Numbered from the stretch's first letter, positions 1-54,653 are shown. The stretch is DNA of 64,000 nt from a virus (IMGVR_UViG_3300029989_000006), one strand, 5' to 3'. Made by a program: numbers and translations. The notes: generated by a model from the letters alone, not told the origin.

Positions 1-2128
1 CTGCTTGTGAATAATTTTTATTCAAATTAGACATTGTACTATCTCCAACATTATCCCCAATATTTGTTATTACATTATTTTCTACATCAGCTCCTTCTGG
101 AGTAATGTATTTATTCCCTAATTTCTTCCTTTGTTTATTAACTGCTGCTATGATTTCCTCTGTATGACCATCTGCAATTAATTGATATAAATCTTTCTTA
201 GTATCCTGTGTTAATGCAACACTATTCTTTGGATCTAACAATGGTTCAATAACTGAGCGTTGATACTCAAACATTGCACCACCAATTACACCACCAACTA
301 AATTAGATAAATATTTTTGAAATCCCTGAGCACTAAATGTGTCATCCCAAGTATTCATAGAACCTTTTTTCTCAGTTCATCCTAAATAAGACATTAAATC
401 CACAACTCCAGTAGACATATCCTGAACAGCTTGTTCGGTTACTTCTTCAACACCTTCAATTACTGCATTTTTTCACATATTCTCTCCAATAATAGATGGA
501 GTTGTAAAAATATCCTCGATTGTGTTTTTAAATTTTGAAACTACTCCTGCGAGTTGAAATTTACCTTTTGCCATATTAGTTTCAGTTGCTTTAAAACCAG
601 TTTGTATTTCCTCCATATATGGTAGAACTGCTTTACGTAACATAGCTTTATTAGTTTCTTCAGTATATCCTGTACTTTTATCCAAAAACCAATGACCCAT
701 TCTATTATTCATCATGATTCCATACTGTCCAGCTGCAGCTAATAAAGTAGCAAAACCTGCACTTCTTTTATCATAACCACCAGTAATTGCCTGACCATAA
801 ATATCACTAGTTGTAGACATTGCCATATATCCTAAAGATAATCCCATAGATAAAGCACTTTGTGCTTTTTCAAATGATTTAAGTTGAGGAAGTTTTTCCA
901 TAGCTGCCTTAGCCATTACTTCAGATTGTTCTGCTGTAATAGTTCCAGTTATTTTTGCAAAATCTACTTCTTGCCCAATTTTTGTTGCTAATTCACTTTG
1001 TTTTTCAAGTAGTGCTAATTCTTTAGATCTCATAAAAATCTTTGATAAACTAGCTGCAGCTCTTTGCTCATATAATTGGGAAAATATAGAACTAACCATT
1101 GTACCCATTTGCTCCACTGATAAAGCAGATTTACTTCCTTCCTCAGATACTGACTGTTGGACAAATTTTGCCATATAATTTTCTGCAGAGGTAGCTAATC
1201 CACCCATAGCATCAGCTTTTTCTCCTAATAACATTCCTTCTAAGGATTTGTAGAAAGTAGGTAAAATAGAGGCCATTGTAACAGCTGCTCTAATTCCTCC
1301 ATAAACTGTTCCTACTCCAGGTATTAAAAATGGGGCAATTTCTGCTGCAACTTTTACACCTATTCCTGCAAGTGATTTATCTTTTTCATCTGCATCAAAA
1401 ACATTATACTTATCAGCTAATGTTCCATCAGTAGTTAATATATCATTTGGATTAACAACTATTTTACCATAAATCTCACCATCACCAAGTTTTTCAATAA
1501 AATAATTTCCATCTTTGTCTACTTTTCATTCACCTTTTTGGTGTTTTATAGCTTTTTGGCTTAATGGATCAAAATGAGTTCCATCTTCATTATAAGTTGC
1601 ATATACTAAAGTATCCCCAAATAATTTCTGAAGAACACCTAAATCATTTACACTTTCTGTTGACCATGAATCAGTTTTAGGATCATATAATTTATTCTGT
1701 TGTGCAAGTTGTTTTTGTGTAAAATCGTTTTCAGTAATACTGTTTATTCCAGTTCTACTAAATAATTGTTTAGATGGATTAAAATCCTTCTCAAATTCAA
1801 CATCAATTTTAAAAGTGTTTGCATTTTTTGGTCTAGAAACATCAAATGGACTGTAATATACAGTATTTATATCTTTTAAATACTCATCATCAGTCATTTG
1901 ATAATAATGACTCTTTGCTAAATTATAAAAATCATTAAATTTTATATCATCAAATTTTCCATCTGCAGTTTTAAACTGATTCTGAATAAACGGACTTTGT
2001 TTATATTCATCTTGAGTTAACAAGGATGTGTTATCAGGATTGATATTTACTGATAACATATCCTGAGTTGTGGCAGTTGGACTACTTAATGTAGCAACTA
2101 ATATATCATTAGGTTTTCTAATTTCCAT
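1..2128 (-). CDS. N-terminal part of a very large virion cargo/ejection protein (code 4); runs off the left edge
   Basis: ORF pieces 1526..2128 and 473..1276 share a frame and join across TGA. It lies downstream of the tail genes, where crAss-like phages keep large cargo and virion-RNAP genes. Confidence 0.7.
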
Positions 2129-2137
2129 AATTTAAAA

Positions 2138-4009
2138 TTAATTAAGTACTTGTGCATTACCATTTACTGATTGTACTGCAGGTGTTGTATTTAAATTGTA
2201 TTGAACATCACTATTTTTAGTAGCTTTAACTGTTGGACCTCTTCCATTAAAACTATCTACAATAACATTAGAGGCAGGTCTATAAGGAATTGCAATCATC
2301 CCTTTATAATAATTACCAAATCAACCTTCATTTGGTTTTGTAGATTTAATTTTAGTTCCAATCTTTTCTGATCAAGTTTTATCTAGATCTGGCATAATTG
2401 CTTTCTCTTCATCTGAAGTTAACTTAGTTACTCAAGGATTATCTTTTCCTAAAGCAGTTCCATCATTTGTATAACCATAAAATACTAAAAATGGTTTAAT
2501 ATGACTATTATCCATAATTACTTTAGTATTTATTCCATTTTTAGTTTCTTCACCAATTTTGATATCAAAATTATGATCTTTAAAAAATCTAGTTGCTTCA
2601 CTAGTAGATCATTTATCCTTATTTGATTCATATGTAGCATAAATCTCTTTAAAGATTTTAAATGCATTATAATCAGGTCTTCCATTATCATCAACTGGCA
2701 TATAAACCTTTGCTGCATCTTTTCCATCATAAACCACATTTTTAAAATCATATGATTCTAATGATTTATTTCCAAAAGAAGCATTATCAAAATCTAAAAA
2801 TTGATTATAACCAATATTTGCTATATTTTGAACTGATGTCATAGGAATTGTTTCATCATTGGGTGTCATTAATGGAAATACTCCACCAATTGCTCCTTTA
2901 AGTAAAACTCCAAGTTTTGCATCATTAAAAGCAAATGTTAAATTCTTACTCATTAATTTATCATTATGAGACATCTGGAAATTATTCATTGGCTTATCAC
3001 TTTGACCTGAAGAACCATCACCAATTTTTACAGGTTTAACTTTTTCAGAATGTGAATCATTAGCACTATTACTAATCATATTCATTAACATAGATCCTGG
3101 TGTATCACCACTTAAAGCAGCTATTACGGATAGTTTATTTTGTGCCTTTTCACCCATAGCTTCCCAAATATATTTTAATCCCTTTTCAACTCTTCCTCTT
3201 TGTGAACTGTTATTCTGTTCAACGGATACATAATCACTATTTACATCTGTAAGTGAATTTAATTTTTGTAATTGTTCAAATTCTTCTTTTGTTGGAGTTG
3301 GACCTTTAATGTTTATTCTAGAAGCATTCATCTGATGTTGAATCTCATTCCATTGTGCTTTACTATAAACTTTATCAGATATTTCTGTATCAGTTCCAAA
3401 ATCCTTTACTAATTTAAGAACATCATCCTTAATTGTTTTTAAACTAACTGCATCATTTGCAACATTAAAAATATCATTTCTTCCAACTAAATTTGGATTT
3501 AATCTTCTTTCGTTTAATAAATCCTGAACTGTTAATAATTGTTGTGTATTTTTATTTTTTTGATAATCAGCTAAGGTAACTCCTTTAACTGTCCCCACTT
3601 TATCCTTAACAAATAATTCTCCTCTACTACCAACTGCAACTTCACTTAATGTACCTTGTTTTGAGGCTTCATTTACTGATTGTGTTCATGCATCTTTATT
3701 TTCTCTTAATGCATTTAAAGTTCCAATTAATTTTATAGAACTTAATCTATTTTTAGGTTGTAAATAAGGATTTGTTTCAGAACCTTCTAACTTTGCAAGT
3801 TCAGATGTAAATTGATTTACTTCATTCGTTAAACCAACATCTTTTTTTATCATTTCTTTATAAAGAGCATCATCTAAAATAGATGATCCAGAATTATCTG
3901 AATCATCTTTTTTAGAAGTTGTTGGCATTTGAGGAGTTGGACTTGAAGGTATATAAGGAGTAAAAGCTACAAATCCACCTCCTTGTTGCAGTTTTGGTAT
4001 AAATTTCAT
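2138..4009 (-). CDS. Virion cargo protein, 623 aa (code 4)
   Basis: Pieces 3686..4009 and 2609..3598 are in frame. Reading TGA as W continues to TAA at 2138. N-terminus MKFIPKLQQGGG. Confidence 0.75.
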
Positions 4010-7000
4010 TATTTAAATACTTTTATTAGTGATTTTTGTAAAAGTTCATTATCTAAAAAAATAGATTTATAAAACATTTCCAATTCTTTTTGACTTTTTT
4101 CATGTTCATTTCTTATTTTTGCCAATTCTATTCTATTATCTTGTGACATACTTCCTCCTTTTTTATAATAAGGAGAATAAGATTGTACCACAGCCTGTTG
4201 TTTTAAAATAGGTGAAGTATATTGTTCCATTAATGTATTTCCATATTTTATTTTGTCTAATAAAGCTTTAGCATAAGCAGATTTTTCAAAAGTCATATTA
4301 GGATCAACATTTTTTGAACTTTTCATATCTTCTGTAAATTTATCACGATATAATTGTTCAATCTCAGGAGAAGATAATTTTGCTAAATATTTCTGCATAC
4401 TAATAAGATTTGGATCATTAATTTTCTGTCGTAAATCAAATGTAGCTTTTTTCTGTTGCCACATTGGTCAAGTCATTGCTTCTGATTTAAGTAAAGTATT
4501 TCTTGCAGTTGTGTCAGCCATAGTTTTATTTGCCATGACTAAAGACATATTTTTTTCAGCATTAGATGATGCAGATTTATTAGCATTTATAATTTGAAGA
4601 TTTCTCTGTCCAATTTGAGTATTCATAGATAATTCCTGTCCTTTTATAGCATCATTTCTTTGAATATCTGCTTGTTGTGCTCTTGATGTTATATCTGCAT
4701 TTTTAGCATTAGCTTGTAATCTTGCACTAATTCCTTTTCCTCAATCATTAGTATTTTCTGCAATGTTTTTACCAATATTATTATTAATTCTATTTTGTTG
4801 TTCTGCTATAATAGTATTTGGTGTACTAGTACGCATATAAACTAATGGACTTGTTTGTAATATTGGAAATTTAGATGCAGCAGTTAATTGATTCTTTAAA
4901 ATGTTTTTATTACCAACCATTGTATTTACAAATTGTGCTAAATTCACAAATCGTGTTGGATCAATGTATGGTTTTGATGTATATGGAATTTCTGCAGGAG
5001 GATTAAGTCCATCTGTATCTAATGTTGTAGTATTAGGTGCTGGTGTTGTTGGTGCAGATGTGTTAATATTAGCAACTTTAGGAGTCATAGGACTTGAAAT
5101 TAATCCAGATGAAACAGTAGGTTTCCCTATTAAATTTGAAACAAAATTATGTACTGTTCCAATTTTTTTATCAACCAATAAACGTTGAACATCAGAAGCA
5201 TTTTTTACTTGATAAGTTCCCTTATTAGCTAAAATTTGTTTATTTAAATCTGATCCATATTTATTAAATCAATTATCATCAATAGATTTTTGATAATCTA
5301 ACCAAGGTTTATTATATTCCTGAGTTTTTGAATCAAACCTAAAATCATTTCCAAATTGTTCCATAGTTCTGAATGGAATTTTTCCTGCATTTTGCATTTT
5401 TAATATTCCTCCTTCAGATTTTTTCTCTACTTTCTTTTTAGAAGTAACTTTATTAACTTTTTCCACTTTTTCTTTAGAAGTTTTTGGTTTAGTAGTTGTT
5501 TTAACAACTTCTTTTTCTTCAGTTGGATTTACAACTACTTTAGTTTTTTCTATTTCAGGAGTTTTTACTGGAAGCTTTTCTTTTAAACTTTGTAGTTTTT
5601 CCACAGCAGATTTTTCATCTGTCACAACTCCTTCACCTAAGTGTTTTCTAGCTAATTTATAATCATTAAAATCTGTGCCTCTATCTCCAGTAACTAATTT
5701 TGGTTCAGTTCCAAGAGTTCATTTTCCAGTAGATTGTCCATAACTATGAGTTAAATTCTTTGTATCAATTTGTGTTAACTCTTCTGGAGTTAAATCCCTT
5801 CCATGAGTTTCTTTATAAGCAGAACTTATTTTATTTTTTAAATTATTTAAACTTGCTTCAGCTTGTTCTTTAGTTGGCTCAGTACCTTTACCTATTAATG
5901 ATTTTCCTCTTTCAATTAAAGATTTAGATGGTTCAGCATCAGGTTTAATAATTCCTTTTACTTGTCCTGTATCAATAAGTTTTCCTTCAGAATCCAAAAG
6001 ATTAAAGGCAGTTTTATCATTTGTAACACTTGCTCTTTCAGCTTGGTTAGTAATAGCTTTCATTCTTCCAGCATTTGCTTTTAAAACATTTGCAAAAGAT
6101 ATACCCATTACTACTTTTTTCCAATCCTCAGGATTAGTATTTTTAACACCATCCTCTTTTCAATCTTTATAAATGTTAACTCCTCCAGAAATTGCCTGTT
6201 GTCCAGCAAATGCACCTAATCCATATTTTCCGGCTGTTGCAACTTTTGCAAAATTAGTTGTTGTAGCTTTTTTAGCTAAGTTTCCTAAAGTTTGACTGCC
6301 TATGATTTTAGTAGTTGCTCCTTTTAATGTCTCAGCTGCTGCAATATGAGAATCAAGTGCTTGTGAAGCTAATTTCATAGTTTCTTCAATTGGTTTTCCT
6401 TCACCAACTAATTTAGTAGCTAATTCAATTGCTTCAGCAGTAGGTTTTTCGGTTTTTAATAATGCAGATGCTCCTTTAGCTTCTTCTAAGGTATTAAAAC
6501 CTGCTTTTGTTAAAGTACCAACGGCCTCTAATTCTTTAGTTCCTTCTATACCTTTACTAATTGCTTCAGCTGTTTTTGTAAGTTTAGCAATCTTAGTTGC
6601 ATCCATTCCTACTTGTCCAGCTTTTATTAAGGATTTAACTCCACCTAATCCGAAGAATGATAATGCCACAAAAGCAGCATCTAGACCTAAATCTAATTTA
6701 TGATTTAATAAACCATTTGCTCCTTCTTCATGTAAAATCTTACCAATATCTGCTCCCATGACAACTCCTGCTCCAATAGAACCTGTTGGTCCTGGAACAA
6801 ATGATGCACCTAATCCTGCAATACCTGCAACATCATAAGCGGTACTTGTAGTATCTTGTCCTGCAAATGTTCTTGCATCTGTTTTATTTACAACTGAAGA
6901 TGGTTCTCCTTTAAGTATTTCTGCTAAAGTATTTTCAGGATTTTCCTGAGATGGTACTACATTCTCTCCTACTACTGGAAGTACTGTTGCTATTGGATGT

Positions 7001-7833
7001 GCTAAATCATACTCTCCTTGAATTTGTTTTTTTCTTTCGTCAGATAATAAAAATCCATTAGGATTAGAACCTGTTCTATTTAATACATCAACTAAACTAT
7101 TTCATGTATTATCATCAATTGGTTTAGTAAAATCAATTTTATCAGTTATAGCTTTTATAGCTTGAGCATGTTCAGTTCCTGTAAATTTATCAATTCCTTT
7201 ATTTGTTTCATAATCTTTTAAATAATCCTCAGCATTTTCTTTAGAATATTTAGCAACTTTTTGTTTGATTACATCATCAGTTGTTCATGATTTTAATGCT
7301 GTATCACGAGATGCATCATTACCACCAAAAACAGTCCCTGTCATATAATCCTCTAAAGATCTAAAAGATTTATCTAATGCATATCTTGGAATAGTTACCT
7401 GAGGATTTACATTTTGTGATGATGTTTTTCAATCATTATATATTGATGCAACTAAAGAATTATATTTCTTTCTTGTAGAATTTTCTTCACCATAATTACT
7501 TCTATCAGGATTGCCAGTATAGGATCCAAATAAATTTTTATTAATTGCATCTCTACTTCCACCTCATTCTGCTTTTTGTAATTCTGGATCAGTTATTTTG
7601 GAACTATCAATACTATATTCGTGTTTAACAGGATCATAAGCATATATATCATTAAAATTACTTAGTTGTGATAATTTTAAGAACTGAGCAGCGGTGTCTC
7701 TAGCTTCTCTTTCACCTTTACTAGTAAAATTTGTACTATCTAATCGTTTTGTCAGATAATCTGCAAAACTTTGTCCTTGTGAAGATATTCCTTCAGTTCA
7801 TCCACCCGCTTTTAATTTTTTGACTAGTGCCAT
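4009..7833 (-). CDS. Large cargo/ejection protein, 1274 aa (code 4), with hydrophobic Gly/Ala-rich segments
   Basis: ATG at 7833 (MALVKKLKAGGW). Five track ORFs (6160..6759, 5719..6108, 5269..5625, 4741..5178, 4009..4464) are in this frame. GIAGLGASFVPGPTG and LDAAFVALSFFGLGG suggest membrane insertion. Confidence 0.75.
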
Positions 7834-7858
7834 GTTTTTACGATTTTTAAATTAAACA

Positions 7859-7892
7859 ATAAAAGGGAGACAGATCTCCCTGCTTCCCTTTT
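7859..7892 (-). terminator. Intrinsic terminator
   Basis: AAAAGGGAAGCAG...CTGTCTCCCTTTT hairpin followed by a T-run. Confidence 0.6.
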
Positions 7893-7900
7893 AAGGTAGG

Positions 7901-8182
7901 CTATCGTCTGCCTATTAATACTAACTTACCTCCTTGACGTTGATAGGTTGGCTGTCCCTGGGCTTCTTGACCTTGTTGACCTTGTTGAGCAGCTCCTTGT
8001 AATAGTTGCATAATCATCTGTGCCAAAGCTGCAGCAGCCTCTGGTCCTAACTGTTGAACAATTTGTGTAGCCATTTGAGCTAATTGTTCTTGTGGATTAC
8101 CTTGTCCACCTTGTCCACCTTGTGCTCCTTGTTCTGAAGCTGCAGGTGCTTCTCCACCTACTTGAAATTTTCTTACTTTCAT
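7901..8182 (-). CDS. Small Gln/Gly/Ala-rich virion protein, 93 aa
   Basis: Intact ORF with KFQVGG at the N-terminus and YQRQGG at the C-terminus. Confidence 0.7.
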   Translation of the reverse strand: MKVRKFQVGGEAPAASEQGAQGGQGGQGNPQEQLAQMATQIVQQLGPEAAAALAQMIMQLLQGAAQQGQQGQEAQGQPTYQRQGGKLVLIGRR

Positions 8183-8187
8183 TTTAA

Positions 8188-8781
8188 TTACTGATTTTTT
8201 GATTGTACATACTCAGGGTTATTAGTTTCCTGAACTTTTAAAAATTTAAATACTCTCTTTCCTAGATTCTTATAATCATTCTCATTATTCGTCGTTGCAG
8301 CTTTCTTTGCAAACTTAATTAATATCTTTGTATTAGCCCGAGAAAAAATTCTCTCTTCACCTTCTAATTCCATTTGAATTTCTCCACCTGAATTTAACAC
8401 TAACATTTTATCTGGTTTAAGTTGTTTATGTTTTGGTTGAAACTCTAATTCATCTCCCACTTTAATACCAGAATTTTCATTAACTTCTAGTACATAATAT
8501 GCATCTTGTTCTGTAAGGAGTTCTTCTGATAATGGTACTCCATGTTGAACAGAGAGTACATTTAATTCATCACTTATAAAAACAATATCTAATGGAATTT
8601 TAGTATCTTTCATTCATATTCCATTTCCTTCCATCATATCATCTTCTGAAAAAAGAAATAACATTCCTTCATCAGGAGCCAATTCAGTTTTTTCTTGTAA
8701 TCCTTGCTCTTTATCTTCATCAGTTTGAGCAAGTTCTACTTTATAATATTTTCCCCCAATTAAAATATTTACTTTTTCCAT
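8188..8781 (-). CDS. DUF192-domain protein, 197 aa (code 4)
   Basis: VELAQT...GL...GMLFLF...W(TGA 8614-8616)MKDTKIPLDIVF...YVLEVN is the DUF192 signature. The conserved W is encoded by TGA. Confidence 0.85.
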
Positions 8782-9020
8782 TCTGATAAAATATTTGAAA
8801 TAACTTCTTTATAGTTCTGTACTAATACCCCGCCTTCTTTATGTTTTCATTTTTTTGCATTTTGTGCAAAAATTGCTCTTTTTCTTGTAAGAGAATTACT
8901 ACTGTGTGTAAGAGTTTCTGTAGATTTACCTGTTCTTTCCTTTAAGGCAGTAAATTTTCCCTTATTTGCAGGATTAATATGTATACTTGTTCCTTCTTTA
9001 GCTTTTATTATATATTTCAT
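8769..9020 (-). CDS. Small basic protein, 83 aa (code 4); absent from the ORF track
   Basis: MKYIIKAKEGTSIHINPANKGKFTALKERTGKSTETLTHSSNSLTRKRAIFAQNAKKW(TGA)KHKEGG...; resembles a small crAss-like virion family as I recall it. Confidence 0.7.
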
Positions 9021-9021
9021 A

Positions 9022-10374
9022 TTATATAGTATTAATAAGATTTGTATTATCCTGAGTATTCTCTAATAGTTCTTCTGTAACAAATTTACCACATTCAATA
9101 CAAATTTGATCTTTTTCTTTTGGATCTTCTGTATCATTAAACTGTGTAAAAAATTCTTCCATTTTATCGGTTGCTTCTTTGTGAAATATAATCTCATTCT
9201 TTTCAATTTCAGCATGTTGCTCTATTTTACCATCTTCCACTGTAATCACTGGAATTCCCTTATTTGTAACTGCACTTCCTAAATCTCCATCATAATGATT
9301 TAAATTTTTATGTAATGCACCTTCGGGAATTACATTCATTTTTCCACCAATAGCATATTTAATAACCTCACCATCCATTGCTTGTCCTTCTTGAGCTTTA
9401 AATATTTTTTTCTTAACCTTATTCTTAAGATTTCTTAATTTTGCAGGATTAATCTTTGTTCCTAATTTTCCTGAGACAATTTGATTTTTATATGAATTGT
9501 TTAATCCAGAAGTTAATGCCTGTCTATTTTTTGAATTGATATCTTGCATAGAATTCATACCTGCTAAGGTATTATTTTTATCTAAATCAATTGCATTAGA
9601 TTTTAAAGCATTAGTTGTATTTATTTTTTCTATAGCAGCTCTTTTATTTGCTAATAATCCTTTTTTATTTCCAAATAATTTACTTATAAAATTAGTTACT
9701 CCCCCAATTTCTGTTGAAGCAATAGTTCTCTCTGCACTATATCCTTTTGTAACTTTAGCAGCTAAATCTGTATCAGAACCTTCTACTTTAGTTTTTGCTA
9801 CTGCATTTAAAATTTTTAAAGGCAATAATGCAGTACTTCCTAAAGTTGAATTCATAATTTTATCACCGGTATTACTTGCATTATTAATTCCACCACCTAT
9901 AGCATTAATACCTTTGTTTAATAATCCTGCAGCTTTCATTGTTCCACCAATAATAGTTCCATAACCTGGAATTGCTGATGCAGCATTTGCTGCCATATCT
10001 CATCCTGCATCAATTCCACCTGTTAATGGATCATCTTGAGTTTTATCTGGAATCAATGAGGATAATAAATTGATTCCTTGTCCTACCAATGCTCCTTTTT
10101 GTTCTTTACCTATTCCTTTTCAAGAACTTTGTAAAGTACTCCCAAGACTCTTTTCAGTATTAGTTTCCCCATATTGATTTTTTTCTCATTGGGTAGAACC
10201 TATTGCAGGTGTTGGTATAAATTTTTGTATCATTTGGTTAAATGAATTTTCTTTAGAGAAATTTTGAAATATTCCAGGAATTCTATTTATTTTAGAATTA
10301 CCTGGAGTATTAAAATTAAGAACTGAATCAGAAGGAAATTCCTCTCATTTTCCTGTATATTGGTTAATTGGCAT
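9022..10374 (-). CDS. Virion cargo protein, 450 aa (code 4)
   Basis: ATG at 10374 is in frame with 9022..9996 across TGAs. C-terminal NVIPEGALH...KGIPVI...AEIEKNEIIF domain. Confidence 0.7.
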
Positions 10375-14792: not shown

Positions 14793-14802
14793 TATTTATA
14801 AT

Positions 14803-18561: not shown

Positions 18562-18563
18562 TA

Positions 18564-36582: not shown

Positions 36583-36585
36583 ATA

Positions 36586-38559: not shown

Positions 38560-38571
38560 TAATATTTATAT

Positions 38572-45888: not shown

Positions 45889-46456
45889 ATGTTCCTGCCT
45901 CCATATTTCCTCTTAATCCATTAGAAGGCTCAATCTCTTTCTTAACTTGTTGTTCTAACTCATTAAGTGTTACAATTAAATCTTTACACCCTTTTATTTC
46001 CGCAATTAAATCTTTAGATTTAAAAATTGGTTTTCCAGTTAATGGATCTCTTTCATTTAAATCTATATGATTTAAATAATATATCTGAGACTCTACAGCA
46101 TTCATTGCACTCTTTAATAATCTTAAAGGAATACTAGAATTCTGCAACTCATCATATTTTCTGCAAGCACTTCTAAATTCTGGATCATTGAATTGTTCAT
46201 TTGTTAATCCAGAATCTTGTAATGCACCTTCATGTCTATCTTGTTCAGGTATACTAAAATATGGACTTTCCCAATCAAAGAATAAATAAATATATTGAAA
46301 CTCTTTAAATGCTCTTTCTTTATTTTTACCTATTTTATCAGATTTTGTTTTGTTTCTTGTTAATTCCATTAATATAGCAAACTCTTTTATTGCTAAAATA
46401 CCAATATCATTGAGTGCTACACATTCATTATCCTTATCATATTGAAAAAATTTCAT
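45881..46456 (-). CDS. Putative terminase small subunit, 191 aa
   Basis: Overlaps the TerL start and is helical; the call rests on gene order. Confidence 0.45.
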   Translation of the reverse strand: MKFFQYDKDNECVALNDIGILAIKEFAILMELTRNKTKSDKIGKNKERAFKEFQYIYLFFDWESPYFSIPEQDRHEGALQDSGLTNEQFNDPEFRSACRKYDELQNSSIPLRLLKSAMNAVESQIYYLNHIDLNERDPLTGKPIFKSKDLIAEIKGCKDLIVTLNELEQQVKKEIEPSNGLRGNMEAGTYD

Positions 46457-46459
46457 ACA

Positions 46460-47731
46460 CTATTTTTTAGGTTTTACTTTAAAATTAGGTTTTGCTTTCT
46501 TTACTTTTTCTATAACTTGTTTATTTGAAATATCAGGTTTCTTTGTTTCAAAATTAGGAACAAAACTTGGCTTTACTTTAGGTTTTACTTGTACTTGTTT
46601 AATAAAGTTTCCACCTTTCTTCATAAGATGTGGATTTGTTGTTTTTCCAAAATTGGGTACCATTGTTTTTCCAACAAACTCAATAGGTCTTGTTTGAGTA
46701 ATACCTGCTATTTCTTTTAAAGGAGTTTCTTGTTTTCTTGATGCAATATTTTTCATTCTTGCAATAAAATCTAAATTCTGTTCAGCAGTTCCTTTATAAT
46801 TCTCTATTCCTAAAGTTTTTGCTAAAAGTTTTCTATCTACCATTCCATTATTTAATCCAATAGATTTTAAATAATCAACTATTGATGCATTAGGATTTGC
46901 TATACCTGTTGTGGCTGTTGTATCTGTTATAATTGGTTTTACACCAGGTTTACTAACTATACCTTCAGGAACATTAATTGATCCATTTGTATTTTTAAAT
47001 ATATTATTTAAAATAGATGGATCTGTTCCATAAGAAATAACTTGTGTACCTGATTCATTTTCTTTTAATTTATTTAAAATTTCATTTGATCTAAATTGTG
47101 CTAGTGGGTCAGTCTGTAATCCTATATCTATTTTTGTATTAACTATATTTGCACCTTGAGTAGAAACTCTAGTATCATTTACTCTATTATTAAAAGCTTC
47201 TACTATCGGGGTAAGTAGATTAAGATTAGAATTTATAACTGCACCAGGTCTTCCATGATATATAGGTTTATCTAACCATTCAACAACCTTGGGATTCATT
47301 ACAGCTTGTCCACCTGCTAATTTTTGAATTAATCCACCAGATTCTTTTTTATCAACTTTTCCACCCTTACAATTACAAGCACATTTGGAAATCATTGTTC
47401 CCCCTTCAGCTTTAACTTCTATCATATTGCAACCACAACCACATTTTTTAGGTGTTGCTTTTCCTTTTTTTAACTTTAATAAATACCCTCCCTTTTTAGC
47501 AGAGACTACTTCGTTATCTTCCTCATTAATTACCTTATCAACAGTTCCATCTGGATCTTCTTCGTAATCAGAAAATAATTGTTGTGGATCCTTTTTTAGA
47601 ATCAATTTTTTAATATGATCCTGAAGTTCTGGTTTCATATCTCCATTTTCGTCTAGGATATCTTCTTCTGTATAACCCCTTTTCTTTAAATAATTTATAG
47701 CGAAATTACTCACCAATTCTTCTTGATTCAT
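46460..47731 (-). CDS. Virion-associated protein with several K-x-x-x-GG motifs and a DUF3597-like cell-wall-binding segment, 423 aa
   Basis: SIVDYLKSIG...RKLLAKTLGIENYKGTAEQNL; CGCGC and CACNC clusters. Confidence 0.55.
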   Translation of the reverse strand: MNQEELVSNFAINYLKKRGYTEEDILDENGDMKPELQDHIKKLILKKDPQQLFSDYEEDPDGTVDKVINEEDNEVVSAKKGGYLLKLKKGKATPKKCGCGCNMIEVKAEGGTMISKCACNCKGGKVDKKESGGLIQKLAGGQAVMNPKVVEWLDKPIYHGRPGAVINSNLNLLTPIVEAFNNRVNDTRVSTQGANIVNTKIDIGLQTDPLAQFRSNEILNKLKENESGTQVISYGTDPSILNNIFKNTNGSINVPEGIVSKPGVKPIITDTTATTGIANPNASIVDYLKSIGLNNGMVDRKLLAKTLGIENYKGTAEQNLDFIARMKNIASRKQETPLKEIAGITQTRPIEFVGKTMVPNFGKTTNPHLMKKGGNFIKQVQVKPKVKPSFVPNFETKKPDISNKQVIEKVKKAKPNFKVKPKK

Positions 47732-47766
47732 GTTTTTATAATTTTATTAAATAATCTTTTTAGTAA

Positions 47767-47988
47767 CTATAATTTTTGCAAATCCTTAGTATTATAAATT
47801 GCGTCTTGTAATTCTCCTGTGGTTGTAAACCATCTACATAAGATTCCTTGAAAGAAATCACCATTAATATTTCCAGTTCTAATTGTCTTTGTTACTTTTT
47901 TAACAACAATCATGATTGGTTTGTTAGGTAACTTTTGACGTAAAGTAACCAAATCGCCAGGTAGAAAATATATTTTTTCATTATCCAT
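47767..47988 (-). CDS. DUF2158/YodC-like protein, 73 aa
   Basis: PGDLVTL...PIMIV...CRWF...G..Q pattern. Confidence 0.6.
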   Translation of the reverse strand: MDNEKIYFLPGDLVTLRQKLPNKPIMIVVKKVTKTIRTGNINGDFFQGILCRWFTTTGELQDAIYNTKDLQKL

Positions 47989-48520
47989 TTTTAATTTTAT
48001 TAAATCTTTCTGTTAATCCTTCATTTAATGCACACAATATTTGTGGTTCACTTGTTTGAATCCAACCTAATGATAGAAAAGGTACTGGATATACAGTTCT
48101 TGTATCATAAAACACATCATCATTAGTTTTTAAATAATGACATTCTGGCCCAATCTCAATTACTTTAGCGCAACCTACAAAAGTTTTTAACGTATCTTTC
48201 TCTCCAGAATCTGGATTATTAAAAGATCCATTATACTCAACAATAATTCCTCCTTTACTCGCAAGTTTCCTATAAGGATTTTCAGGATAAGGTAATAATA
48301 TTACTTTATTACCTAAAGGAATTAATTCAAGTTTTTCTAATTTCTTATCTAATTCTTCTTGTTTTTGTAAAGCAAGTTCACGATATAGTTTACCTGCTTC
48401 TTCTAAATCTTTTTCAGCTTTAATTTCTTCCACTTGTTTTTTTAATGGACTTTCTGGAATAATTAATTTGTTTTTACCTGAAAAGTAAAATTTTGATTCT
48501 TGTTCTTCTTTTAAACTCAT
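47981..48520 (-). CDS. GroES-like co-chaperonin with an N-terminal extension, 179 aa
   Basis: LIPLGNKVIL...KGGIIV...AKVIEIGP...LKTNDDVFY. Confidence 0.7.
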   Translation of the reverse strand: MSLKEEQESKFYFSGKNKLIIPESPLKKQVEEIKAEKDLEEAGKLYRELALQKQEELDKKLEKLELIPLGNKVILLPYPENPYRKLASKGGIIVEYNGSFNNPDSGEKDTLKTFVGCAKVIEIGPECHYLKTNDDVFYDTRTVYPVPFLSLGWIQTSEPQILCALNEGLTERFNKIKNG

Positions 48521-48555
48521 TTTCTAATTTTCTTATTAACATTTACATTTATCTT

Positions 48556-48831
48556 CTACCATTTTTTAGCTGGGCAGTGAGCTTCTGGTACTCTTGTTTT
48601 TGAACCTAATACACATCCACATCCTCTATAAAATCCTATTTTACCTACTTCTGAAGTTTCTCCAGTAATAGGATTTAGATATAGACTTTCATTACAAAGT
48701 TCTCCAAAAATACTATGTATTTTTAATAATGGACAGCCATTTCTACAAACTGCAATTCTTGTTTTAAATAATGTCTCTTGTAAATTCAAAGCATTATTTA
48801 CAGATCCCTCAATTATTTGACTAAATGACAT
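48556..48831 (-). CDS. Cys-rich (Zn-binding) small protein, 91 aa
   Basis: R..VC..CP...GCGC.L.SKTR...HCP..KW; start MSFSQII. Confidence 0.65.
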   Translation of the reverse strand: MSFSQIIEGSVNNALNLQETLFKTRIAVCRNGCPLLKIHSIFGELCNESLYLNPITGETSEVGKIGFYRGCGCVLGSKTRVPEAHCPAKKW

Positions 48832-49247
48832 AATATAATTCCTCCTATAAATCCAGTACCTATAAAATAGGGCCACTTTCTTATTTTATTTTTATATTTA
48901 ATTATATCTTTATTTAATTGAATATTTACATCAGATAATAATTTAGTTTCTTTATCTTTTGTATTAATTATAATATCTTTATTATTATTAACAATATTAT
49001 AATCTTCTGTTGTTTTCTTTAAAGATTTAATTATCTTTTCATCTAAGTTATATAAGTTCTCATATTCTTCTAATGTTGTAATATAAGTTCTTAAATTTCT
49101 AATTTCTTGTTTCTTAAATTGATAAGAAACTATTGTATCGTTAGTAATACTATCTTGATATATTACTCACTTTTGTGAGGACTGAGTCCATCCACATAGC
49201 GTGGTCAATAGCACCAGCATTATAGATAGTGTTAATTTTCTTATCAT
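48813..49247 (-). CDS. Spanin-like protein: signal peptide, coiled coil and C-terminal TM, 144 aa (code 4); absent from the ORF track
   Basis: MIRKLTLSIMLVLLTTLCGWTQSSQKW(TGA)...KWPYFIGTGFIGGIILCHLVK; overlaps the upstream TM/coiled-coil gene. Confidence 0.5.
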
Positions 49248-49521
49248 AATGATTTATTATTTTTTCCTTCACATGTTCCATTGAATCTACTTGTATTTCT
49301 AATCTTTTTATATTATTCATAAAATAAGTATTCTCTTTATTTAATGAATCTACTTTTAATTCATATTTTTCTATTATTGCATCTATTTTTGCTTCACTTT
49401 TCTTTGTGTAGTAAATAGATATAGTAGATATTCCTAGCCATAAAAATGCAACTATTAAAATACTTGCTAAGATTATTCCTACTTTAGAATATAATTTTTT
49501 CTCTTGATCGCTTAAAATCAT
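49150..49521 (-). CDS. i-spanin-like protein (TM plus coiled coil), 123 aa
   Basis: One N-terminal TM segment followed by heptad-like sequence. Confidence 0.5.
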   Translation of the reverse strand: MILSDQEKKLYSKVGIILASILIVAFLWLGISTISIYYTKKSEAKIDAIIEKYELKVDSLNKENTYFMNNIKRLEIQVDSMEHVKEKIINHYDKKINTIYNAGAIDHAMWMDSVLTKVSNISR

Positions 49522-50413
49522 CGTGCTCTAATTGTTTTTTATAATATGCTAACATTCTTTCAACATCGTTTTTAATATATTCACATTCATAAGTCTCACA
49601 ATTATCGTCGTGATCATAATGAATAAGCATTAATAATTTAATATTAAATTCAGGATTAATTTTTTGAATCATCCAAGCATATGTACTTAATTGTAAAGTA
49701 TAATGCCAGAAATTACAATCCTGAATATTATTTAATGGATACATTAAGGTTGAACTCTTTTTCATCTTTCTATCAAAATAAGACTTGGTCTCAATTTTTT
49801 TATTAGTCTTAAAATCAAGAATATATACATCCTTATCATCAACAATAACTAAGTCTGCTTGCCCAGCTAATCTAAGCTTTCCATCGTCAGATATTCTTGA
49901 TAATAAAATCTCAGGATAAATTCCTTTTTCTCCTATTTTTAATTTATTAGATGTATCAGGATTAAACTTTCCACCTAATTTTAAATGTTGAAATGATTCC
50001 GTTTTTCCACCTAATAATTCCAACTCTCTTGCTTTATGTATTGCTGTTCCTCTAACGCAAGATTCATCTCTTTTTCTAGCCCATTCAGTTAATAATTCTG
50101 TTTTTGCAAAATCAAACTGATCTTTTGGAACATTGAAAAAAGTTAAATAAGTATCATTGAATTTCTTCGTATCTAATAAAGCATTCTTAACTTCTTTAAA
50201 TCTAGTTTCTCCAACTAATCCTTCTAATGTTTTATACGCAGACCAAAATTCTTCATCAAATGTAGCAAATTTATGTATAAGTGTAGTAACTGAAATACAA
50301 TCCTGATTACTATCTTTTGTCCAATATTTATGTAAATCATCATTATACTTAACTGCTTGATCTTCTTTATCAACAATTAATTTTGTATAATCAATTAAAT
50401 TATTTTTATTCAT
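49484..50413 (-). CDS. PD-(D/E)XK nuclease, 309 aa
   Basis: SVTTLI, RGTAIH, LAGQADL...ILDFKTN and YTLQLSTY. Confidence 0.85.
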   Translation of the reverse strand: MNKNNLIDYTKLIVDKEDQAVKYNDDLHKYWTKDSNQDCISVTTLIHKFATFDEEFWSAYKTLEGLVGETRFKEVKNALLDTKKFNDTYLTFFNVPKDQFDFAKTELLTEWARKRDESCVRGTAIHKARELELLGGKTESFQHLKLGGKFNPDTSNKLKIGEKGIYPEILLSRISDDGKLRLAGQADLVIVDDKDVYILDFKTNKKIETKSYFDRKMKKSSTLMYPLNNIQDCNFWHYTLQLSTYAWMIQKINPEFNIKLLMLIHYDHDDNCETYECEYIKNDVERMLAYYKKQLEHDDFKRSREKIIF

Positions 50414-50440
50414 ATATCATTTTCATTTATTCCTATTATT

Positions 50441-51172
50441 CTAAAATGGTCATTTTAACCATTTCTTTTCATGTAATTTGTTATCTAAATTATCAAAGTT
50501 CCACATAGAACTTATAATTTGTGCAGCCTTGGCAACCTCATGTAAAGAATCTTTTTTACATAATATTTTTTCATGTATTGTAGTTGCAACTATAAATCCA
50601 ACTACTTCATCTACACCATGTATTGCATAAAATATGGCAGACTTAACATTATTAGGTTCCATAAATGCATATAATACTGGATATTCTTCTTTAACTTCCT
50701 TTAAATCTTCAATAAATATATATCCGTCTTTTTCTAATTGAGTTAAAAATTTAGCAATTAATGATAAATTTATTCTTTGATACTGTAAAGCCACTGGTGA
50801 AGTACCTGTTGAAGTAACCTCTGCTGCTGCAGAAGCAAACAAAAAAGGCAATCCTGCTAAGTTAGAAGTACCATTAGAATATTCAAATACTAAAGCTCTA
50901 TCTGCACAAGCATTTATTGCTACGTCTTGTAATAATACAATTACTTCTTCAGAAAATTGTTTTCTCAATCTATTACCCACTTTATGAGTTTCTTTTTCTA
51001 TTTGTACTCTTCTAGCAATCTTTTCATCTATAGCTTGGCCTGATGAACTTCAAGAAAAAATTATAAACCCTATTAAAGCTAAGGGTAATGCAGCTGCAAG
51101 TAAAAACAATATAACTGCCCAAATTCCTTCTTGTTGTAATAAATACATTAAAAATTTAACTAATGCCTCCAT
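50441..51172 (-). CDS. Membrane protein with a GAF-like C-terminal domain (T4 T-holin-like architecture), 243 aa (code 4)
   Basis: The hydrophobic N-terminal extension contains 2 TGA and is in frame with 50450..50980; ADRALVFEYSNG motif. Confidence 0.5.
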
Positions 51173-51216
51173 TTATTTTTGGATTTTTAAAATTAACTAC
51201 TCTAAATTATTTTATG

Positions 51217-51273
51217 CAAAGTTATGAATAATTATCAGATAAAATTATAAATCTTTTAAAAATTTATAATTTT
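51217..51273 (-). promoter_or_regulatory. Late promoter: TAACTTTG plus upstream palindrome
   Basis: TAnnTTTG at 51217-51224; AAAATTATAAAT...ATTTATAATTTT at 51241-51273. Confidence 0.6.
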
Positions 51274-51347
51274 AAACTAAATATACTTTAAACATTAACA
51301 TTATCATATCAATAAAAATAGGAGACAATTATCTTGCCTCCTATGAT

Positions 51348-52031
51348 CTAAATTCCATTATCCCGAAGTAATGTAAGTATTTGTGGTATAAGAGGGTTTC
51401 TCACACAATCTTCATCAGCAAATTCTACTGTTCCAATAAGATTTGTTTCTTTAAAAATTTCAAACATAGTTGTTAGACATGAATCTTTAGGATTTTTCTT
51501 ATCTATTTGTTCTATATCTCCAAGGAAAATATATTTAGAATTTTCTCCTATACGAGTCATAATAGTTTTAAATGTATGATCTGTAATATTCTGTGATTCA
51601 TCTACAATAACTATAGAGTTGTCAATACTTAGTCCCCTAATAAATGCAATTGGTAATACTTCTACTACACCTTCTTTCATTAATTTTTTGCAAGTATCCT
51701 TACCACATAGTTTATCAATATTCCATGTATAAGACATCATAAATGGTTCCATTTTATCTTCTGCAGAACCAGGTAAAAATCCTAGTTCTTCCTGTGGAAT
51801 AGTAGTGATTGATTTAATCAATACTATTTTTTTATACCTTTCTCCTAATAAATTTAAAGCAGTAGCTAATGCGCAATAAGTTTTTCCTGTTCCAGATGAT
51901 CCAATTGCTATAACTACTTCTTTTCGTTTAATTAGGTTTACCATTTCACCTTGTTTAATAGTTCTTGGTATAAAATTCTGTACTAAATTCGGCTGTTTCT
52001 CGGGTAGCTCGTCTCTTTTTCCTCTTCCCAT
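51348..52031 (-). CDS. phoH: PhoH-family ATPase, 227 aa
   Basis: GSSGTGKT, LGFLPG, FIRG, IVDESQN, TRIGENSK, GDIEQID and VRNPL. Confidence 0.93.
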   Translation of the reverse strand: MGRGKRDELPEKQPNLVQNFIPRTIKQGEMVNLIKRKEVVIAIGSSGTGKTYCALATALNLLGERYKKIVLIKSITTIPQEELGFLPGSAEDKMEPFMMSYTWNIDKLCGKDTCKKLMKEGVVEVLPIAFIRGLSIDNSIVIVDESQNITDHTFKTIMTRIGENSKYIFLGDIEQIDKKNPKDSCLTTMFEIFKETNLIGTVEFADEDCVRNPLIPQILTLLRDNGI

Positions 52032-52049
52032 ATTTAATTTTTAGTTAAT

Positions 52050-52077
52050 AAAAAACCCATTGTTATTACAATGGGTT
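52050..52077 (-). terminator. Intrinsic terminator
   Basis: AACCCATTGT-AATA-ACAATGGGTT followed by TTTT. Confidence 0.7.
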
Positions 52078-52155
52078 GAGTTATATTAGTTGATGTGAGA
52101 TTAATTTTCCGAAATTATTATAAATTTTCCTATTTGTCACATACCTTATAACTTC

Positions 52156-52335
52156 TTACCATTTAGGTTTTAATTTTCCATAATTTGGAACTACATCACC
52201 AATTAATTCTGGAGCATAGTTTTTTAACACCTCTTTTATATATTTTTTAGATGGATTACCTAAAGCTAATTGTATAGCGTGATATGTTAATCCCTCTTTT
52301 CTTAATTCTATTATTCTTTCTTCTTGTTCATTCAT
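52156..52335 (-). CDS. Small HTH-like protein, 59 aa
   Basis: IIELRKEGLTYHAIQLALG; start MNEQEER. Confidence 0.55.
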   Translation of the reverse strand: MNEQEERIIELRKEGLTYHAIQLALGNPSKKYIKEVLKNYAPELIGDVVPNYGKLKPKW

Positions 52336-52337
52336 AA

Positions 52338-52553
52338 TTAAAATCTTGTTGGAATACATCCAGATTCCACAATATCCCATTTATAAAAAGATCCATCTGG
52401 AAATTTAAACTCTTTTAATTTATCAATTATTTCTTGATTATCAATTCTTAATTTTAAATACTCATTTACTTGAACATAAAATGCTGGCATATCAATTACT
52501 CTTACAAGTGGAAACCGTGCACTCATTTTATATATTTCATTAAATTTTTCCAT
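52338..52553 (-). CDS. Hypothetical protein, 71 aa
   Basis: Intact ORF coupled to the upstream gene by TAATG. Confidence 0.55.
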   Translation of the reverse strand: MEKFNEIYKMSARFPLVRVIDMPAFYVQVNEYLKLRIDNQEIIDKLKEFKFPDGSFYKWDIVESGCIPTRF

Positions 52554-53101
52554 TACTTTCTATACTTAGCTCTTGCAGAGTCCTTATTCTTAGATTTAAA
52601 TGTATCTAATTGAGAATCACAGTTTGGGCAGATTAATCTTAAATTAGTTCTCTCATTATTGTCTGCATTTCCATCAATATGATCTAAAATAAAAACTAAA
52701 TTTTCACCATTCCACATATCCTCCATCTTACATATAGAACATTTATGATTCTGTTCTTCTAAAAAATGTTTTTTATAATGCTGCATATTTTTTTGACCAT
52801 ATGCAATAGAATTATCTAACTGATATTCTTGATAATGTTTTTTACTTTGATATTCTCCTCTACAACTTATAGAACAACACTCTGTTCTACCTCCTCTACC
52901 ATCTTTTGCTGGTTTAAATTCTTTGCCACAATTTGGGCATATTTCGTTAAGAATTTTGTTTTTTCTATTAGGTACATCAATACCTAATTTTAATGCCCAT
53001 TGTTTAATTGTTTTATCCGAAACCCCAAACATTTTTCCTAATGTAGTATAAGGTAACTTATCTACTATTAATAATTGTTCTAATTCCTCTTTTGTTGTCA
53101 T
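52553..53101 (-). CDS. HNH endonuclease, 182 aa
   Basis: CSIC...LDHIDGNADNNERTNLRLICPNCD; N-terminal HTH-like segment and CPNC zinc motif. Confidence 0.88.
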   Translation of the reverse strand: MTTKEELEQLLIVDKLPYTTLGKMFGVSDKTIKQWALKLGIDVPNRKNKILNEICPNCGKEFKPAKDGRGGRTECCSISCRGEYQSKKHYQEYQLDNSIAYGQKNMQHYKKHFLEEQNHKCSICKMEDMWNGENLVFILDHIDGNADNNERTNLRLICPNCDSQLDTFKSKNKDSARAKYRK

Positions 53102-53108
53102 TTATCAT

Positions 53109-53140
53109 TTTACATTTACACTTACACTTACACTTACATT
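53109..53140 (-). repeat. Hexamer tandem repeat (TGTAAG)3(TGTAAA)2 in the tRNA 3' trailer
   Basis: Read directly on + as tttacatttacacttacacttacacttacatt. Confidence 0.8.
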
Positions 53141-53141
53141 G

Positions 53142-53214
53142 CGCCTTCACTTCGATTCGAACGAAGATCTAATAATTTTGAAGATTATTGTTTTAGCCGT
53201 TAAACTACGAAGAC
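53142..53214 (-). tRNA. Opal suppressor tRNA, anticodon UCA (presumed Trp)
   Basis: GTCTTCG TA GTTT-AACGGCTA-AAAC A ATAAT-CTTCAAA-ATTAT TAGAT CTTCG-TTCGAAT-CGAAG TGAAGGC G. Full cloverleaf, discriminator G, CCA not encoded. Confidence 0.92.
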
Positions 53215-53229
53215 ATTTCTTTATATATT

Positions 53230-53445
53230 TTAAAATCTTCTTCGGGTAATTATATTTATACCTTCTAGAATGTCTTCTAGTTTACTTTTATCGCCATAAT
53301 AATATAACCAACCCCTATCTGTTATTGTAGTATCAAATACTTCTATATCATCTCCCTCAATTCTTACTGTCCAATTCTTTTTACACCATTCCTGGTCATT
53401 CGCATTGAATCTAAAACCGTGCTTTGTCAATACTTCATCCATCAT
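53230..53445 (-). CDS. Hypothetical protein, 71 aa
   Basis: ORF downstream of the promoter; start MMDEVL. Confidence 0.55.
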   Translation of the reverse strand: MMDEVLTKHGFRFNANDQEWCKKNWTVRIEGDDIEVFDTTITDRGWLYYYGDKSKLEDILEGINIITRRRF

Positions 53446-53465
53446 TCCTTTATATTTTACATACA

Positions 53466-53473
53466 CAAAGGTA
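53466..53473 (-). promoter_or_regulatory. Bacteroidota-type -7 box (TACCTTTG) for the tRNA/HNH unit
   Basis: Matches TAnnTTTG. Confidence 0.55.
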
Positions 53474-53655
53474 ACAAATTTTTTTATAAAAAATCTTAAA
53501 ATATAAAAAATATAAAAAATTTTACTTCTATATATTTTTAAACTTAATATTTCAAGATTTATAAAAGTTAATCCTTAAAAATTAATTCAATTCATTTATA
53601 AATCTTATCAATAAAAAAATTCATCAATTTTATTTTTTATGTAAAATATAATCTT

Positions 53656-53663
53656 TAATTTTG
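53656..53663 (+). promoter_or_regulatory. -7 box (TAATTTTG) for the SLT gene
   Basis: Matches TAnnTTTG, about 25 nt before the ATG. Confidence 0.5.
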
Positions 53664-53687
53664 TAAAATCAATAATCATTAAACAAC

Positions 53688-54653
53688 ATGGTAACTGAAA
53701 TAAATTGAATTGAAAATAAACAAACTGGTAAAAAAATAAACTGGTTACAGAAAGGATATAAACTTCCATCTAAAATAGAACGTGCAAAACGTCAAATGGT
53801 AATAGAAAGTAATTTAGATTCACTTGCTACTTCACCCAAAGGAGCTTATGGATGATTTCAGATGTTACCTGGTACTCATAATGATTATGTAAAAGAAACT
53901 GGAGATAGATCATCCTTTGGTCATTTATCTAATTTTGATCAGGCTTTTAAAGAACGAAATTGATATATGGATAAACTTAATAATCTTGATTTTTTAAAAG
54001 ATAAACCTGGAACTCCATTAGTAAAAGCAGCTAAAACTTATGCTACATATAATGCAGGTCCGGGTCCAATAGTAAATGCACTTAATGATGCTAAAGCTAG
54101 AGGAGAAGATATTTATAATAGTCTTGGCTGATTAAATGATATACCAGAAGAAAGTCGTAATTATGTAAATAAAATGTTTGGAAAAGATCCTACATTTGAA
54201 CAAAAATATAAAGAGTCAAAGTCTAATCCTAATGCTTCCTTTCTTAAGAAAATAAAATTTCAAGCAGGAGGATTATTTAATACTAATAAAACAGCATATG
54301 TTGATAGTGTATTAAATGCAAATAAACATTTGGATTGAGTAAAAAGATTATTTGAAAATCATCCTATATCTATTCCAACTCCTAAAGATATATCCTCAGA
54401 AAAAGGAATGATGTCAACACATCTAATGTCTGATAATAATGAAGGATATATGTTTCCAAGATTACAATTAATTAATGGTAAACTAACTGACTTAGGAAAT
54501 AGAGCTGAAGATTATGCAAGGGATACTAATACTGGAATACAATTACCAAAAATACAAGGAACTTGATTGGCAAGAAATGGTTATAAACAAGGAACAGGAG
54601 TTTTAATAAAATATCAAAAAGGAAATAAATTATTTTTAATTCCTAAAAACTAA
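53688..54653 (+). CDS. Lytic transglycosylase (SLT/GH23-like), 321 aa (code 4); absent from the ORF track
   Basis: IESN...ATSPKGAYGW(TGA)FQMLPGT...TYNAGPG...PEESRNYV; several in-frame TGAs; TAA at 54651. Confidence 0.88.

Follow-up and report, generated by a model that had tools for sequence, protein, structure and literature searches.

Evidence for two readings of TGA in the genome of a crAss-like phage and for avoidance of the reassigned codon by its capsid gene

Can one phage genome read the codon TGA in two ways? This question is raised by a stretch of 64,000 nucleotides (the window) of the virus record IMGVR_UViG_3300029989_000006, which carries late genes with many in-frame TGAs and the start of an early arm whose genes may end in TGA. 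The window comprises bases 6868-70867 of one 172,188-bp record with a completeness rating of 100% and a G+C content of 29%; positions refer to the window unless marked as genome positions. An earlier note on this DNA had claimed that TGA is read as Trp in late genes and apparently as a stop in early genes, and that the code switch times assembly and lysis. The first of these claims is supported by the analysis of sequences presented here, and we consider it very likely that the phage has a two-code genome: early and middle genes are written in the standard code and use TGA to stop, whereas from the gene of the large terminase (TerL) onward TGA stands for Trp in most virion and DNA-packaging genes, decoded by a tRNA with anticodon UCA, tRNA(UCA). 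The two-code layout is real, and a phage group with the same design has already been described.

Two readings of TGA

Gene calling was compared region by region between genetic code 4, where TGA encodes Trp, and the standard code 11. On the minus strand from 2129 to 45888 the coding density is 0.98 with code 4 and 0.65 with code 11, and the median open reading frame (ORF) has a length of 348 amino acids (aa; 34 abutting ORFs) and 153 aa, respectively. The late-gene fragments thus join in frame across the ~127 in-frame TGAs of this region, as the earlier note had stated.

The residues facing TGA codons in homologous proteins were determined for 26 sites, resulting in Trp at 21, Tyr at three, and Leu and Gln at one site each. 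In TerL, compared with 30 homologues, seven of the nine TGA sites lie on majority-Trp columns, two of them invariant, and the other two on Tyr columns. Four of the six TGAs in the gene for an SLT transglycosylase-domain protein are located on strong-majority Trp columns (52-71 homologues each); one of the others faces Leu and one is covered by just four aligned residues. The four motifs that had been quoted from DUF192, GT2, FN3 and FISUMP proteins as carrying a family-conserved Trp are all present, and the W in each is a TGA codon. For DUF192 the family Trp was confirmed, as it faces W in both solved homologues, and the same holds for FISUMP, where Trp is faced by all four TGA sites of the protein encoded at 32998-34083 and by four of the five in that encoded at 38572-40413, the fifth facing Tyr (8/9 over both proteins). 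The W preceding DDDD in the GT2 protein, in contrast, faces Gln in the sole solved homologue that matched, which does not bear out a conserved Trp.

We then counted codons. The 24 TGA-using late genes of the whole genome contain 176 TGA and 49 TGG codons, and this TGA share of 78% comes close to the fraction of Lys, Glu and Gln codons that end in A (81-85%), indicating that TGA behaves as a fully adopted sense codon in late genes. The distribution of the base 3' of sense TGAs equals that after any codon, so that no local read-through signal is visible, nor did the TGAs that end early genes differ significantly in this base from the sense ones (chi-square p 0.30).

The early genes were represented by 95 code-11 ORFs from the plus-strand arm (genome 64-155 kb), all non-overlapping and 100 aa or longer. 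These contain 259 TGG codons and not a single internal TGA, in agreement with the claim that early plus-strand genes use only TGG, and 18 of the 95 end in TGA. In eight cases the stop is part of an ATGA that also contains the start codon of the following gene, and in one case it lies in TGATG. Early orthologues in G001, a related complete genome of 178 kb, do not extend past the TGA but end at matching positions, with TGA, TAA and TAG interchanged, and in one orthologue pair TGA is aligned exactly with a G001 TAG. Within the window the TGA at 63401-63403, in an ATGA overlap (63400-63403), and the TGA at 63712-63714, which ends the next ORF, are as the earlier note had described them. The TGA at 59141-59143 is located in a gene-poor stretch and closes an ORF without homologues, and here a stop is only possible. 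The ORFs at 63116-63714 and the ORF ending at 59141-59143 gave nothing in tblastn against related genomes; in a search of 5.8 billion proteins each early gene of the window matched itself alone, a DNA search of five related records resulted in short matches only, and a locus scan with a 270-aa early protein in two distant partial matches. As the early ORFs of the window have no homologues, homologue ends were compared for early genes located elsewhere in the genome. In TGA-ending early genes a TAA or TAG comes next after a median of 5 codons, in the others after 8.5 (p 0.009); this comparison is biased, since long read-throughs had been excluded as recoded genes, and we do not use it as evidence.

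Some features of the early arm stand apart. At genome 130875-132506, outside the window, an early gene is interrupted by an insert of ~940 bp: its G001 orthologue maps in two parts, residues 1-109 and residues 111-232, which share one frame. Given the 193-aa ORF within it, the insert is probably a self-splicing intron. As the gene is split, the TGA at genome 131202, which had been counted as a stop in the list of back-up stops, is an exon end and not a gene end. Several short code-4 candidate ORFs with TGAs lie at 58389-61655 (+), with two tandem TGA-TGA pairs in 59453-59740. In G001 a gene for an adenylosuccinate-synthetase-like protein (L038:11226-12449; Pfam E 6.8e-35) has six in-frame TGAs amid an otherwise standard-code early arm. 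Finally, the plus-strand genes whose internal TGAs are well supported are the SLT gene and, outside the window, six of homing-endonuclease type (two GIY-YIG, two HNH, one PD-(D/E)XK, one DUF4379), and two GIY-YIG genes are recoded in G001 as well. Recoding is not a property of all homing endonucleases of this genome, as three on the minus strand are without TGA.

The tRNA(UCA) and the start of the recoded block

Among the 26 tRNA genes of the genome (ARAGORN) 25 form a plus-strand array, and the tRNA(UCA) is the sole one on the minus strand, set apart from this array. It is an ordinary class I cloverleaf of 74 nt with the anticodon loop CUUCAAA and G73. The gene shares its strand with TerL, from which it lies 7.3 kb upstream, and is located within a standard-code stretch, so that its production is independent of its own product. 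In G001 a tRNA(UCA) occupies the identical syntenic slot with equal gene order, and 17 related loci have a tRNA(tca) on the strand of a recoded TerL, 5.6-9.6 kb upstream of it. The isotype is not readable from the sequence, and a comparison with 66 phage tRNAs gave no consistent isotype; charging with Trp is what the protein alignments suggest. A blastn search with this tRNA and that of a relative against E. coli genomes yielded no match. The tRNA has 72-75 nt in most relatives, as in this genome, and in some (G001 161242-161337, L061, L065, L074) the slot holds a form of 93-100 nt with a long extra arm or an insertion in the variable region.

The earlier note had let the recoded block reach to 54653, which has to be corrected, as the block starts at the TerL start at 45888. 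Upstream, on the same strand as the late genes, lies the standard-code stretch at 45881-57003, which encodes a DnaD-like replication initiator, a PhoH-like ATPase, a PD-(D/E)XK exonuclease, two HNH and one GIY-YIG endonuclease and which also houses the tRNA(UCA). The 15 genes counted contain no TGA and 27 TGG, and their order is conserved in G001. A further gene at 50441-51172, which was not included in this count, contains a single TGA that is probably a sense codon and falls within the part alignable to the G001 orthologue. In 22 non-redundant relatives the totals are 151 TGA and 350 TGG upstream of TerL versus 400 TGA and 188 TGG from TerL onward.

A scan for sigma-70 promoters gave results at chance level (95 found, 90.5 expected), and terminator-like sites as a set were no commoner than in shuffled sequence (5 found, 4.0 expected). 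Individual strong terminator-like hairpins with 10-13 bp stems and T runs are located at 51318-51344 (-), after the PhoH gene, at 52054-52077 (both strands), where the PhoH gene comes next and the tRNA with three small genes precedes, and at 54747-54778 (+), where a 13-bp stem lies 3' of the SLT gene.

Two other explanations of the TGA pattern have to be weighed here. Were code 4 in use throughout the phage or its host, with early genes lacking TGA by chance, the early genes would stay intact, since read-through past their TGA stops adds 0-19 codons only. However, under an equal A-bias some 80% (~200) of the 259 Trp codons in early genes would then be TGA, and none is; moreover, early in-frame TGAs occur only at the extreme 3' end, eight of them in the ATGA overlaps, and G001 orthologues have TAA or TAG at the aligned position of an early TGA. 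We regard this explanation as very improbable. Conversely, the late TGAs might encode selenocysteine, be stops that leak in certain contexts, or mark breaks in genes undergoing decay. ARAGORN does label the tRNA(UCA) as 'SeC', a label based on the anticodon alone, but the ordinary cloverleaf has no long extra arm, the TGA sites face Trp or an aromatic residue and never Cys, up to 23 TGAs occur per gene with an unremarkable following base, and recoding of these genes is shared by dozens of relatives, leaving this explanation next to no credibility. Selenocysteine recoding in particular was rejected, as the tRNA-Sec architecture is absent and neither Cys nor Sec is found at the aligned sites.

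Late genes without TGA and the role of the second code

Nine genes within the recoded block contain no TGA and 48 TGG codons in all, namely the gene for the major capsid protein (MCP), three neighbours of it, four genes of a LamG array and 40545-41363, despite an A-ending share of 81-91% in their other A/G codon pairs. At a TGA share of 78% the probability that the MCP gene is without TGA by chance is ~2e-5. MCP orthologues in 22 related loci have 0-1 TGA among seven Trp codons, and the adjacent gene has 6-8 TGA; as one relative carries a single TGA in its capsid gene, the codon is tolerated there, though rare. The heavily TAG-recoded phage record MT835492 exhibits a similar bias, with 4 TAG among the 23 Gln codons of its MCP gene versus 124/247 in adjacent genes. 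Avoidance of TGA or TAG by the capsid shell is thus found in two independently recoded lineages; we did not find it in the recoded-phage literature searched and consider it a modest addition.

We also asked what the neighbours of the MCP gene encode. The best fold match of 19302-20402 in two programs is 7qof_a, a 333-residue non-MCP chain of the phi-crAss001 capsid, suggesting that the gene probably encodes an auxiliary capsid protein, although the match is weak (Foldseek E 1.3e-3, template modelling score 0.24-0.26; VIA Z 9.7, root-mean-square deviation 14.9) and the AlphaFold model is of low confidence (predicted local distance difference test, pLDDT, 48.9). In phi-crAss001 the auxiliary protein is present one-to-one with MCP (Bayfield et al. 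2023, PMC10172136). The product of 23780-24754 may be scaffold-like, a weak assignment that draws on its acidic character, a helical AlphaFold model of low confidence (pLDDT 60.7) and the position next to MCP. PDB sequence searches with the three MCP neighbours and the SLT protein gave nothing useful.

The three LamG paralogues are ~37% identical to one another, and in all four genes of the array A-ending codons are as frequent as elsewhere in the block. The best outside homologue of the LamG genes has 41% identity, with no close one among deposited phages. A recent import of these genes from a standard-code source, considered as a reason for their lack of TGA, is unlikely in view of the divergence of the paralogues, the absence of any outside relative above 41% and the codon bias that they share with the genome. 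In G001 a single ORF of 4301 aa (129497-142402; 39 TGA, 10 TGG) lies at the position of the four LamG-array genes, and variability is high in this section of the late block.

The claim that lysis depends on TGA is only partly supported. The SLT gene carries six TGAs, and so do, with three and six, two small membrane-type ORFs at 24927-25567, likely the genes that had been called holin-like; no Pfam family was matched by these ORFs, and they are at most candidate holins. The C-terminal domain of the SLT protein (residues ~190-315) occurs in hundreds of proteins, some with 2000-2576 aa, at the ends of large proteins and often at the N-terminus; as it recurs in proteins of at least 2000 aa, the SLT protein may be a virion or ejection enzyme rather than a lysin. 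The best endolysin candidate is a Peptidase_M15_4 protein encoded at genome 152708-153223, after a recoded GIY-YIG gene, with five TGG and no TGA.

How could the two codes work together? Early and middle genes, which fill the plus-strand arm and the opening 11 kb of the minus-strand arm, use the standard code of the host and often end at TGA, and the tRNA(UCA) would be made from standard-code DNA before or alongside the late genes. Once abundant, it could outcompete release factor 2 (RF2) of the host, so that TGA-bearing genes are completed. TerL, portal, muzzle, ring, giant cargo and SLT proteins are incomplete without UGA read-through; portal, terminase, tail, cargo and SLT proteins could therefore be finished only after the tRNA(UCA) has won over RF2, and capsid-shell proteins and the M15 peptidase would be made independently of it. 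Since genes with 21-23 TGAs (muzzle, giant cargo) have to be finished, read-through per codon must be high, and the avoidance of TGA by the capsid gene suggests that it is not complete. The layout matches the idea that the switch times assembly and lysis, but it is patchier than claimed. The sequences show the two meanings of TGA, the tRNA and an arrangement conserved in relatives, whereas the order of expression, the charging with Trp and any benefit from timing are what we infer.

Several observations weigh against this reading or against a simple on/off gate. MCP, the probable auxiliary protein, the scaffold-like protein and the four LamG-array genes need no read-through, and neither does the M15 peptidase as the likeliest endolysin. 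Between the last standard-code gene (45881-46456) and TerL there is no gap but an overlap of 8 nt, and the code boundary is thus not obviously a transcription boundary. The phage tRNAs nearest to the tRNA(UCA) differ in isotype, and some are Arg(UCU). The note had proposed to search the rest of the genome for RF1, tryptophanyl-tRNA synthetase (TrpRS) or an RF2 inhibitor; none is encoded: searches with PF00472 and PF03462 for RF1/RF2 and with PF00579 for TrpRS found nothing in this 100%-complete genome, PF00579 matching in all control genomes, and there is no known RF2 inhibitor or recognisable helper either. Yet 10-23 TGAs per gene would have to be decoded efficiently against host RF2.

An explanation by mutation pressure has to be taken seriously, although we would stop short of calling it probable. 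Given a suppressor tRNA and a G+C content of 29%, TGG would drift to TGA wherever the cost is small and would be kept in genes translated before the tRNA is available and in proteins made in hundreds of copies, as RF2 still terminates some chains. The TGA share of 78% is near that of A-ending codons in other pairs (81-95%), and MCP, its probable auxiliary partner and the LamG array have kept TGG despite equal A-bias, for MCP also in the 22 relatives and the TAG-recoded one. Furthermore, low-copy portal, rings, muzzle and cargo use TGA freely (copy numbers from PMC10172136), and the M15 endolysin candidate has none. These copy numbers stem, however, from the distant phage phi-crAss001, the auxiliary and scaffold assignments are weak with only 1-2 Trp codons per gene, and a high copy number of the LamG proteins is no more than putative. 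Mutation pressure is also compatible with a benefit from timing, and both may hold; neutral drift and an adaptive timer are inseparable by sequence alone.

The TGA-free set fits the idea that the proteins of highest copy number avoid the reassigned codon, within the limits of these weak assignments. We tentatively propose that incomplete read-through tunes the use of the reassigned codon to virion copy number. If so, proteins with hundreds of copies, namely MCP, the auxiliary protein paired one-to-one with it, the scaffold-like protein and perhaps LamG head fibres, would be TGA-free, and parts with 5-12 copies would use TGA freely; the second code would then be a built-in dosage control besides, or in place of, a timer, and the same bias in the TAG-recoded relative would make this a general rule of recoded Crassvirales. 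In any case, avoidance by the capsid shell provides a testable handle on the efficiency of the switch.

Relation to other phages and inventory of the window

The genome belongs to a crAss-like phage, probably of the Zeta group, to which its size, tRNA load and recoding fit. Matches of MCP to Crass_capsid (46 bits) and of the muzzle protein to crAss_MUZ (71.9 bits) are well above the Pfam cut-off of 27 bits in both cases, and the matches to Ring 1 and Ring 2 (18.7 and 19.3 bits) lie under the family cut-offs. Zeta crAss-like phages have genomes of 145-192 kb with dozens of tRNAs (Yutin 2021, PMC7886860), a range that includes the 172,188 bp and 26 tRNAs found here. The order of MCP, auxiliary protein, ring proteins and muzzle known from phi-crAss001 (PMC10172136) is recognisable, but this phage serves as a structural reference only, as the sequence similarity is remote and the auxiliary match weak. 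PHROGs profiles matched almost nothing among the late proteins.

Reassignment of TGA to Trp has been reported for Zeta crAss-like phages, e.g. Lera (PMC7886860; PMC12386605). As in our genome, these have a tRNA-Sup(TCA) and TGA inside TerL, structural and lysis genes, with Trp there in relatives, and recoding is mostly late; Lera also has 26 tRNAs and recoded muzzle and ring genes (PMC12386605). The suppressors differ, since Lera and G001 carry CTA too and this genome TCA only. Early TGA stops with ATGA overlaps and the avoidance by the capsid shell, both described here, were not found reported gene by gene in PMC7886860 or PMC12386605. Standard-code early genes, recoded structural and lysis genes and a suppressor tRNA located upstream in standard-code DNA are likewise known from the code-4 and code-15 gut phages Agate, Jade, Sapphire and Lak and from TAG-recoded crAss-like phages (Borges et al., 10.1101/2021.08.26.457843). 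Agate phages, too, have recoded homing endonucleases inside early genes, whereas the 'code change module' of Jade combines a Sup tRNA with TrpRS and RF1, the latter two being absent here; that study sought families over-using the reassigned codon, not those avoiding it (10.1101/2021.08.26.457843). The model in which the switch times late genes is already published (PMC7886860; 10.1101/2021.08.26.457843). Besides the avoidance by the capsid shell, a small advance on these papers is that the early TGA is shown as a working stop by overlaps and orthologue ends.

Mycoplasma and Spiroplasma, which use code 4, have AT-rich genomes and decode UGA as Trp with a tRNA whose anticodon is UCA. There RF2 has been lost and one code applies to the whole organism, whereas this phage carries both meanings with UGA as a working stop early. 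It is thus a further clear example of a virus that would change the meaning of a codon during infection, here with one tRNA only. Annotation needs two codes, as code 11 loses a third of the late block and breaks the TerL, portal, muzzle and cargo genes, and code 4 alone gives ~23 early genes false tails.

The features of the window are compiled in Table 1. The seven recoded genes at 31733..40413 comprise two encoding FISUMP-domain proteins, one each for an FN3-like protein and a GT2 glycosyltransferase, one with a weak methyltransferase-like match and two unknowns, and the block at 2..10374 includes the end of a giant 2899-aa protein that runs off the window.

Table 1. Positions, strands and Trp codons of features in the window
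Feature	Position	Strand	Remarks
Further recoded late genes, incl. those for 623-aa and 1274-aa proteins	2..10374	-	
DUF192 protein	8188-8781	-	Trp at TGA site in homologues
Tail genes, incl. two unknowns	10386..19232	-	
Muzzle protein	10386-14792	-	Pfam crAss_MUZ; 23 TGA, 1 TGG
Ring-protein-like genes	17857-18561; 18564-19232	-	matches under family cut-off
Two TGA-free genes downstream of capsid gene	19302..21287	-	
Probable auxiliary capsid protein	19302-20402	-	fold match
Major capsid protein, 476 aa	22339..23769	-	Pfam Crass_capsid; 0 TGA, 7 TGG
Scaffold-like acidic, mostly helical protein, directly upstream of capsid gene	23780..24754	-	0 TGA, 1 TGG
Two small membrane-type ORFs, 76 aa (3 TGA) and 140 aa (6 TGA)	24927..25567	-	hydropathy scan
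Four TGA-free genes: three LamG-domain paralogues and a 362-aa protein	25809..31731	-	36 TGG
Seven recoded genes	31733..40413	-	together 37 TGA, 9 TGG
Gene without any Trp codon	40545-41363	-	0 TGA
Portal, 741 aa	41351..43576	-	Pfam P22_portal 28.6 bits; 4 TGA, 3 TGG
Large terminase TerL, 704 aa, first recoded gene	43774..45888	-	9 TGA, 5 TGG; hundreds of full-length homologues
Standard-code stretch, same strand as late genes	45881..57003	-	
tRNA with anticodon UCA (opal suppressor)	53141..53214	-	ARAGORN; Rfam tRNA 56.2 bits
SLT transglycosylase-domain gene, isolated, recoded	53688..54653	+	Pfam SLT 35.4 bits; 6 TGA, 1 TGG
Start of early plus-strand arm, standard code	57295..64000	+	

The nearest MCPs in GenBank belong to unannotated human-gut phage records with 50% identity. 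The two closest deposited phage records are MT835470 and MT835492 (MCP 50% identical), and their codes differ from that of this phage: the late genes of MT835470 have neither TGA nor TAG and thus follow the standard code, and MT835492 is TAG-recoded as described above. Finally, the last 100 bases of the 172,188-bp record duplicate bases 43-142 at its start, and this end repeat with its small offset suggests a circular or terminally redundant assembly.

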